From positions 8,848-72,847 of the IMG/VR virus record IMGVR_UViG_3300046780_000148: a stretch of 64,000 nt of DNA; one strand, given 5' to 3'. The position numbers and the translations under genes are program-made. The DNA comes from a virus. Position 1 is the stretch's first letter. Each line of letters begins with the position of its first letter. The notes below the pieces were generated by a model. That model was not told where the DNA came from. It made no database searches and worked only from the letters and a program-made list of their open reading frames with translations. Positions 15,687 to 15,801 of this stretch are shown here, in pieces.

Positions 15687-15801
15687 TTGGGTGGAAGCAC
15701 TGGCGGCATAGTGCACCGTGGTACCAGCTGCGAATGAAGTCATAGTATGGTCGATATGACTCGCAGTGCGGAGGTAGTCGGTTCGACTCCGACCCACCCA
15801 A
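15687..15801 (+). ncRNA. tRNA-like RNA with extended anticodon arm
   Basis: TTGGGTGG/CCACCCAA; GCACT/AGTGC D stem; CCGTG/TGCGG closing CTGCG/CGCAG and AGTCATA/TATGACT; GTCGG-TTCGACT-CCGAC. Confidence 0.7.

Follow-up and report, generated by a model that had tools for sequence, protein, structure and literature searches.

A tRNA-shaped element, here called E3, lies at positions 15688..15802 (115 nt) of the 64,000-nucleotide stretch of viral DNA analysed in this study (the window), closely flanked by two open reading frames on the same strand (+, as for all window features given below). Upstream of it is a 58-aa ORF, P0002 (15505..15681), whose stop codon falls 6 nt before E3 and which is absent from the two nearest relatives of this phage, G001 and G002. 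Downstream is P0003 (15813..16136), with a ribosome-binding site, AAAGGGGG, at 15804-15811 that starts 2 nt after C74 of E3. The ORFs homologous to P0003 in G001 and G002 start at matching MAKF/MKKF/MPLKF residues, downstream of an ATG (15747) which lies inside E3, in frame with P0003 and without a ribosome-binding site. No promoter-like or terminator-like site was found adjoining E3. Its tight intergenic placement fits a presumed co-transcription with the neighbouring genes.

The virus record as a whole is 72,847 bp long and resembles a tailed phage. Its structural genes include a Mu-like portal, a major head protein, a tape measure and a tail tube (Pfam / PHROGs), and among its replication and metabolic genes are a family A DNA polymerase fused to a UDG domain, an SNF2 helicase and a QueC/QueD/QueE/FolE set. 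A GH25-type lysin match slightly below the Pfam cut-off (26.6 vs 27 bits), together with the Shine-Dalgarno sites, suggests a bacterial host. The single public run found to contain the phage DNA is a soil-metagenome DNA run, and may be the source of the sequence. The polymerase is encoded by one 790-aa ORF (32016-34388) with an N-terminal domain of the uracil-DNA-glycosylase superfamily, and the QueC, QueD, QueE and FolE genes for 7-deazaguanine synthesis occupy 26584-30634. No DpdA/TGT-type transglycosylase was recognisable among the scanned ORFs of the phage, and three ORFs near the Que genes (27523-28002, 29703-30041 and 31282-32037) were assigned to no family. At 13828-14367 there is also a 179-aa DEDD-type 3'-5' exoribonuclease related to RNase AS, which scores 88 bits in NCBIfam (below the cut-off of 200) and 24.7 bits with the Pfam Rv2179c-like family, and whose PHROG is annotated 'RNase H'; among the 15 fetched relative sets, tBLASTn found a homolog of it in G008 only. 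An RNase T-like trimmer adjoining tRNA look-alikes could have a bearing on their 3' ends.

The original prediction placed a tRNA-like RNA at 15687..15801, and the shape is indeed present there, with its exact ends shifted by one base to 15688-15802 according to sequence, fold and ARAGORN -i. The 5' strand of the acceptor stem, UGGGUGG (15688..15694), forms 7/7 Watson-Crick pairs with the 3' strand CCACCCA (15794..15800) and passes the strict scanner described below, and U15687:A15801 is a possible eighth pair. The 3' strand is followed by the discriminator A73 (A15801) and by C74 (15802) and G75, the bases 3' of the discriminator reading C-G-A; CCA is not encoded. Two linker bases, AA (A8 A9), separate the acceptor stem from the D arm, GCAC / UGGCGGCAUA / GUGC (15697..15714), which has a 4-bp stem (6 bp possible) and GG in its loop. 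The variable region is 5 nt long, and the T arm GUCGG-UUCGACU-CCGAC (15777..15793) contains an exact match to GGTTCGANTCC at 15780-15790. Outside the long arm all 16 of the 16 stem pairs are Watson-Crick.

The long arm itself (15716..15771) takes up 56 nt at the position where a tRNA has a 17-nt anticodon arm. In the predicted folds a 5-bp anticodon-type stem (15716-15720 with 15767-15771, including two G-U pairs) encloses 46 nt rather than seven, and these form an irregular hairpin made up of a 7-nt bulge (GUACCAG), a 6-bp helix, a 5-nt bulge, a second 6-bp helix and a 10-nt loop. Folding therefore bears out the architecture that had been proposed, with intact acceptor, D and T arms and an irregular hairpin in place of the anticodon arm. 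The accompanying statement that there is no recognisable anticodon loop is correct in that the stem encloses 46 nt, but is too strong, since candidate 7-nt loops exist. ARAGORN in its intron mode reads a loop CUCGCAG (anticodon CGC) on the 3' side of the arm after removing 39 nt, and GUACCAG on the 5' side is a second candidate.

E3 does not qualify as a standard, working tRNA. The number of tRNAs called in the window by default ARAGORN is 0; Rfam at its gathering thresholds reports nothing, and around the site there is no tRNA match even at E <= 10. Over the genome the tRNA family RF00005 has three matches, at 10341-10409 (38 bits), 10470-10572 (22.5 bits) and 11384-11438 (17.5 bits), and E3 is not one of them. 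The features of a canonical tRNA that E3 possesses are the 7-bp acceptor stem, the D arm and a T arm with the T-loop consensus; as encoded, its 5-bp stem does not close on a 7-nt loop with U33, and there is no free anticodon. Positions 8 and 14 of E3 are A and U, whereas the elements of tRNA-rich relatives have U8 in 87 of 97 cases and A14 in 85 of 97. Perfect helices combined with the loss of tertiary invariants appear to point to a long evolution in which the constraint lay on the helices and not on decoding. As to the tRNA from which E3 might descend, a gapped alignment of E3 and the related elements E1 and E2 to 116 ARAGORN tRNAs of relatives produced no clear parent, and the best matches in relatives to R1, a covariance model built from E3 alone, are different isoacceptors.

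Such elements are rare by chance. A strict scanner, which looks for a T arm with the loop consensus, a 7-bp acceptor stem and a D arm, detects 2 elements over the 72.8 kb of the genome, compared to a mean of 0.02 per dinucleotide shuffle (n=200), any match at all being seen in 4/200 shuffles; a relaxed scanner gave ~0.6 matches per shuffled genome, and its extra matches were therefore left out of the counts. R1, which scores 148.9 bits on E3 itself, matches only two other places in the 64-kb window, E1 (21.1 bits, E 0.004) and E2 (20.5 bits, E 0.006). A covariance-model search from E3 thus recovers exactly the two elements of an upstream island that had been predicted to share its design, and BLAST shows that their inserts are unrelated, as had also been predicted. 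The idea that the hairpins might be mobile was considered and rejected, as the inserts occur once only and are not repeated in this genome or the two nearest relatives. For the whole of E3 the MFE is -47.3 kcal/mol (z = -2.87), a stability that 1/200 shuffles equals. By itself the E3 arm is unremarkable in stability, not beyond chance (z = -1.37; 31/300 shuffles fold as well).

E1 (10468..10575; RF00005 22.5 bits; ARAGORN -i) is a tRNA-His-like shell with a long anticodon arm. It is the most tRNA-like of the elements and resembles tRNA-His in the alignment, having the His-specific pair G-1:C73 and CUGUG at positions 32-36 (GUG at 34-36). E2 (10934..11046; ARAGORN -i -ps) is tRNA-shaped with a 40-nt insert after the loop AUCGCAA, and is read by ARAGORN at a lowered threshold as tRNA-Ala(CGC) with 40 nt inserted. 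The insert of E2 folds as two hairpins, and the description of a long irregular helix common to all three elements had to be given up in its case. E2 and E3 share flanking sequences, a leader AAGCU/UG (10930-10940; 15684-15694) and a trailer A/ACGA (11045-11050; 15800-15805), although their bodies are unrelated. E2 begins 4 nt past a TAA stop codon, as E3 begins 6 nt past a TAA, and base -1 can pair with base 73 in E1, E2 and E3.

Two other parts of the island deserve description. E0 (10341..10410, 70 nt; RF00005 38 bits; fold) is tRNA-Lys(CUU)-like and is called by ARAGORN at a lowered threshold only. Its linker is a single base, its D stem has 6 bp and its 5-nt D loop no GG; position 33 is G and the T loop reads UGUAAAU. 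Elements with a similar 6-bp D stem, showing compensating D-stem changes, are found in G002 (20358-20437) and in a further relative, G014 (c32553-32627). No convincing ORF was found in the ~600 nt that follow E2 (11050-11650). This region includes a partial tRNA-like T arm (11384-11438, the 17.5-bit RF00005 match), and at its end a 13-bp hairpin (11563-11620) precedes a T-run. Further RNA genes may lie here.

E3 could be an interrupted but working tRNA gene. This would mean that a hairpin of ~39 nt is cut out and the ends are rejoined by a novel route, restoring the loop CUCGCAG, which reads GCG. To our knowledge no such cut-and-rejoin route for tRNA is known in bacteria or phages. With introns allowed and at its default threshold ARAGORN does give E3 as tRNA-Ala(CGC), placing a 39-nt insert after the 5' stem strand and ahead of the loop, and E1, which has both the histidine pair and the GUG triplet, as tRNA-His(GUG); unexplained tRNA 'introns' are also described in Lak megaphages (PMC6784885). 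However, the E3 insert is not at position 37/38, its 7-nt and 5-nt bulges are both on the 5' strand so that there is no bulge-helix-bulge motif, and at 39-46 nt it falls well below the size of a group I intron (usually > 200 nt) and has no Rfam match. In its acceptor stem E3 has G3:C70, where the identity pair for Ala would be G3:U70. Neither an RNA ligase nor a splicing endonuclease was recognised among 104 ORFs compared with Pfam (59 + 45) and 64 ORFs compared with PHROGs, and beyond generic tRNA matches an insert-free counterpart of E3 occurs in 0/50 related records. The intron-mode readings of E1, E2 and E3 are themselves weak evidence because in relatives the same mode also proposes inserts of 193 to 2452 nt, which are plainly false. 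At the default threshold it also reads 0/4 of the long elements of G014 at their own coordinates, its one intron call there being 488 nt long with a 412-nt insert. We consider it very unlikely that E3 is spliced in this way.

No ortholog of E3 was found in neighbour-protein searches, in pattern scans of viral, genome and metagenome collections, or by R1 over 50 related records. The neighbouring 211-aa protein, P0001, has no relative in the viral collection and stands alone in a set of 5.8 billion proteins; no relative of P0002 was found; and the pattern of the 3' half of E3 has no match in the viral or the genome collection. One match of the E3 D-arm 20-mer in the metagenome collection was set aside as chance, being without tRNA context. 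Megablast of 13000-18000 against GenBank phages gave no match, and the SNF2 gene led to one 60%-identical contig which starts at the gene itself and has no upstream DNA. The capsid protein was more productive, giving 185 confirmed relatives and 80 loci that were kept. Over the 50 related records R1 has 7 matches in 5 records, all of them ordinary-length tRNAs in which the arm is skipped, and the arm is found in 0/50; with the arm skipped, ordinary tRNAs of related phages score 28-42 bits. Among 16 genome sets the elements have no homologs beyond generic D-arm and T-arm matches.

G001 matches this genome over its length in reverse orientation, and G002 runs colinear with it; in both, the island is syntenic, following a homolog of ORF 9472-10245. 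At the position of E3, a DUF5679 gene of G001 directly abuts the P0003-like gene with no room between them, and G002 has no tRNA-like element. It had been envisaged that relatives might carry ordinary tRNAs here, the insert then being a recent neutral one; the two nearest phages have neither a tRNA nor a look-alike at this place. On the evidence of gene order, E3 and the 58-aa ORF together look like a gain in this lineage.

Although E3 has no counterpart, its design recurs. Over 20 relative records, RF00005 has 11-34 matches in some phages and few in the nearest ones (3 in G001, 4 in G002, 4 in G010 and 2 in G014). In a census of T arms, the ten sets classed as tRNA-poor contain 27 motifs vs ~1.6 expected by chance, 13 of them with an acceptor stem and 14 without a strict one, and the six classed as tRNA-rich contain 131, of which 97 have an acceptor stem; this division was drawn after the RF00005 counts had been seen, and 4 of the 16 sets are partial genomes. 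Inclusion in the census depended solely on a T arm and strict acceptor pairing, so that elements with decayed upper halves are missed, and the 13 tRNA-poor elements that the census retains measure 62, 70, 74, 75, 80, 80, 88, 92, 106, 111, 112, 113 and 139 nt. Elements longer than 84 nt thus make up 7/13 in the tRNA-poor sets vs 4/97 in the tRNA-rich sets (93/97 being <= 84 nt), and the long-armed design is present, as had been anticipated, in the nearest tRNA-poor relatives too. No arm has a homolog in another genome among the 16 sets.

The record of L079, G014, has five aberrant tRNA-shaped elements of 75 to 139 nt within 2.7 kb of its minus strand (31028-33734), and no standard tRNA was found in its 54.8 kb. 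The long-armed G014_a measures 139 nt, of which 91 nt form a central rod. A gene of the P0001 family follows it after 22 nt, and the 5' half of G014_a matches only itself in the searches. One element each in G001 and G014 has a 4-nt 'anticodon' loop. The arms of G014_a (z = -2.2) and G014_d (z = -2.34) are more structured than their shuffles, and taken together the arms are weakly more stable than shuffles, as expected of an unconstrained part.

Position 74 was not a criterion for picking elements in the census, and it is C in 13/13 of the tRNA-poor and 95/97 of the tRNA-rich elements (108/110 in total, from G000 and 15 sets) against a background frequency for C of 0.24. Position 75 is G in 10/13 and 54/97, respectively, and CCA is not encoded. 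As C74 is kept in the look-alikes, they retain the 3'-end signature of their clade. A signature so widespread in the clade suggests that the host has a particular route of 3'-end maturation.

It is possible that E3 is a decaying tRNA pseudogene, left from an array most of which was shed and having a palindromic insertion in its anticodon arm, for example by template switching, and that it has no function. The capsid-linked relatives with 11 to 34 RF00005 matches provide the kind of array from which it could derive, and those arrays adjoin a homolog of ORF 12548-12880, as does the island of this genome. The 14 of 27 tRNA-poor T-arm motifs without a strict acceptor stem are in keeping with this origin; some of them may be decayed relics, which favours a series of decay. 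The loss of U8 and A14, an arm whose stability is within chance, the absence of an E3 ortholog and the conservation of the arm in 0/50 related records would all be understandable in a pseudogene, and intact helices and C74 would be equally expected in a tRNA gene that was disabled recently. On the other hand, the outside-arm pairs are 16/16 Watson-Crick and C74 is kept in 13/13 elements in spite of the lost tertiary invariants, and a maintained upper half in these circumstances argues against a plain, fresh pseudogene. Three such elements also persist in a tightly packed genome, with gaps of 2-6 nt to neighbouring genes, and the site of E3 is not an ancestral one for tRNA (there being no room in G001 and no element in G002), so that E3 looks to have been gained with the small ORF and not left behind. 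On balance we think a functionless relic rather unlikely, though it deserves serious weight. The suggestion in the original prediction that the elements are a functional class rather than pseudogenes is upheld in so far as the parts outside the arm look maintained, and falls short with respect to a payload, for which support is wanting.

The notion of a payload holds that the upper half of a tRNA carries a functional hairpin, which acts as a regulator, a decoy or an RNase III substrate and differs between elements. Engineered tRNA scaffolds carry hairpin payloads in just this manner. A carrier design common to three elements with unrelated arms, and the recurrence in relatives of long arms, some of which are stable beyond shuffles (G014_a and G014_d), can be cited in its favour. 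Against it, the E3 arm is not among these, arm homologs are absent from the 16 genome sets and the 50 related records, and no arm matches an Rfam family. Complementarity of the inserts to phage or host RNAs had been proposed as a check, and in short-word BLAST of this genome and the two nearest relatives E3 has no opposite-strand match at E <= 1, its sole match at that level being of 13 nt and on the same strand. With no ortholog from which covariation could be drawn, no antisense match and unremarkable stability, the claim that the arm is a payload is left without support, and we regard this role as highly improbable.

We tentatively prefer a different explanation, which we would put a little below an even chance: that E3 derives from a tRNA and is a non-decoding shell, transcribed together with the adjoining genes and retained because tRNA end-processing enzymes accept it as a substrate, with an anticodon arm that is free-running. 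This proposal draws on the perfect helices, the conserved C74, the lost U8 and A14, the apparent freedom of the arm and the tight fit between genes. E3 would be transcribed within an early polycistronic RNA, between the 58-aa ORF and the next gene, and the RNase P and 3'-end machinery of the host would cut at its borders. Cleavage could free a small, stable tRNA-like RNA, and could leave the downstream mRNA starting a few bases upstream of its ribosome-binding site. CCA might then be added to E3, and the phage might derive some benefit. Selection would keep those parts that the enzymes recognise, namely the stack of acceptor and T arm, the D/T elbow, the discriminator base and C74. The anticodon arm would be dispensable for this role, and may for that reason have drifted and expanded into a lineage-specific hairpin.

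A more elaborate version, which seems to us distinctly unlikely, is that the long-armed elements are finished tRNA-bodied small RNAs, trimmed, CCA-added and perhaps charged, whose arms keep them off the ribosome while they act as decoys or as carriers of regulatory hairpins, or else that the arms are removed by a novel tRNA splicing route. The possibility of charging arises because E1 keeps the histidine identity pair G-1:C73, and a decoy might act, for instance, against host defences that target tRNA.

E3 is thus one of a set of tRNA look-alikes in a group of phages, and these may well be handles for tRNA-trimming enzymes rather than working tRNAs. If the shells are indeed processing handles, phages would shape their early mRNAs by a logic of tRNA punctuation that is otherwise known from mitochondria. 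It would also follow that tRNA finders systematically misreport such genomes, which in this case appear to have 0 tRNAs by default and 'intron-bearing' ones in permissive mode. The clade forms a natural series, from phages with 25-34 ordinary tRNAs down to those with look-alikes only, in which the fate of tRNA genes might be followed once decoding is unneeded. With C74 nearly invariant and no CCA encoded, the elements offer a concrete clue, open to testing, to 3'-end formation in the host.

Compared to the canonical tRNA (RF00005), E3 has the same acceptor stem, a D arm with GG, the T loop UUCGACU, the discriminator and the C74 typical of its clade; it differs in its 56-nt anticodon arm without a free 7-nt loop and in A8/U14, and is missed by default ARAGORN and Rfam. 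In the bacterial Y RNA YrlA a long helix likewise substitutes for the anticodon arm of a tRNA-like module (T, D and an acceptor-like stem). YrlA carries its free ends on that helix and has a closed acceptor-like stem, whereas E3 shows the reverse arrangement, with its free ends on the acceptor stem. No sign of a Y RNA system was found, there being no Rfam match at E <= 10 around E3 and no TROVE/Ro60 domain among the Pfam matches. Stable RNAs C and D of the T4 tRNA region are phage RNAs which are not tRNAs and depend on tRNA-processing enzymes. We know of no such phage RNA described as forming a complete cloverleaf in which the anticodon arm is expanded. Another small phage RNA, the C4 antisense RNA of P1/P7, is matured by RNase P, as cited in a review (PMC4919922, its reference 206). 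RNAs of the C4 type resemble E3 as non-tRNA RNAs that rely on tRNA-processing enzymes and lie in or beside tRNA regions, and differ from it in having a defined regulatory role (C4) or another shape.

In a literature search judged by titles and the starts of abstracts, no long-armed, non-decoding tRNA look-alikes of phages were found, the nearest account being that of Devoto et al. 2019. The 'enigmatic' tRNA introns of Lak megaphages are there described as short, located in the anticodon region and of no known class (PMC6784885). They are like E3 in being phage-borne and in being seen only with intron-tolerant tRNA finders (PMC6784885). They also differ, in that they are conserved across genomes and have borders defined by insert-free genes (PMC6784885), neither of which has a counterpart for E3; the body of E3, moreover, departs from tRNA invariants.

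The t-elements of plant mitochondria, described by Forner et al. 2007, are tRNA-like sequences which are cut by RNase P and RNase Z to give mRNA ends, and which keep a GGTTCRANYCC T arm and an acceptor stem and adjoin coding regions (PMC1920247). E3 is likewise a non-canonical cloverleaf with a T-arm motif and an acceptor stem at gene borders. The t-elements are organellar and have ends mapped by experiment (PMC1920247), whereas E3 is phage-borne and its ends are predicted; E3 also keeps a full D arm, and a long hairpin replaces its anticodon arm. Substrates of RNase P that are not tRNAs include phage regulatory RNAs and MALAT1 (PMC4919922). Of the systems described so far, the plant mitochondrial t-elements, with other tRNA-like RNase P substrates, come closest to E3.
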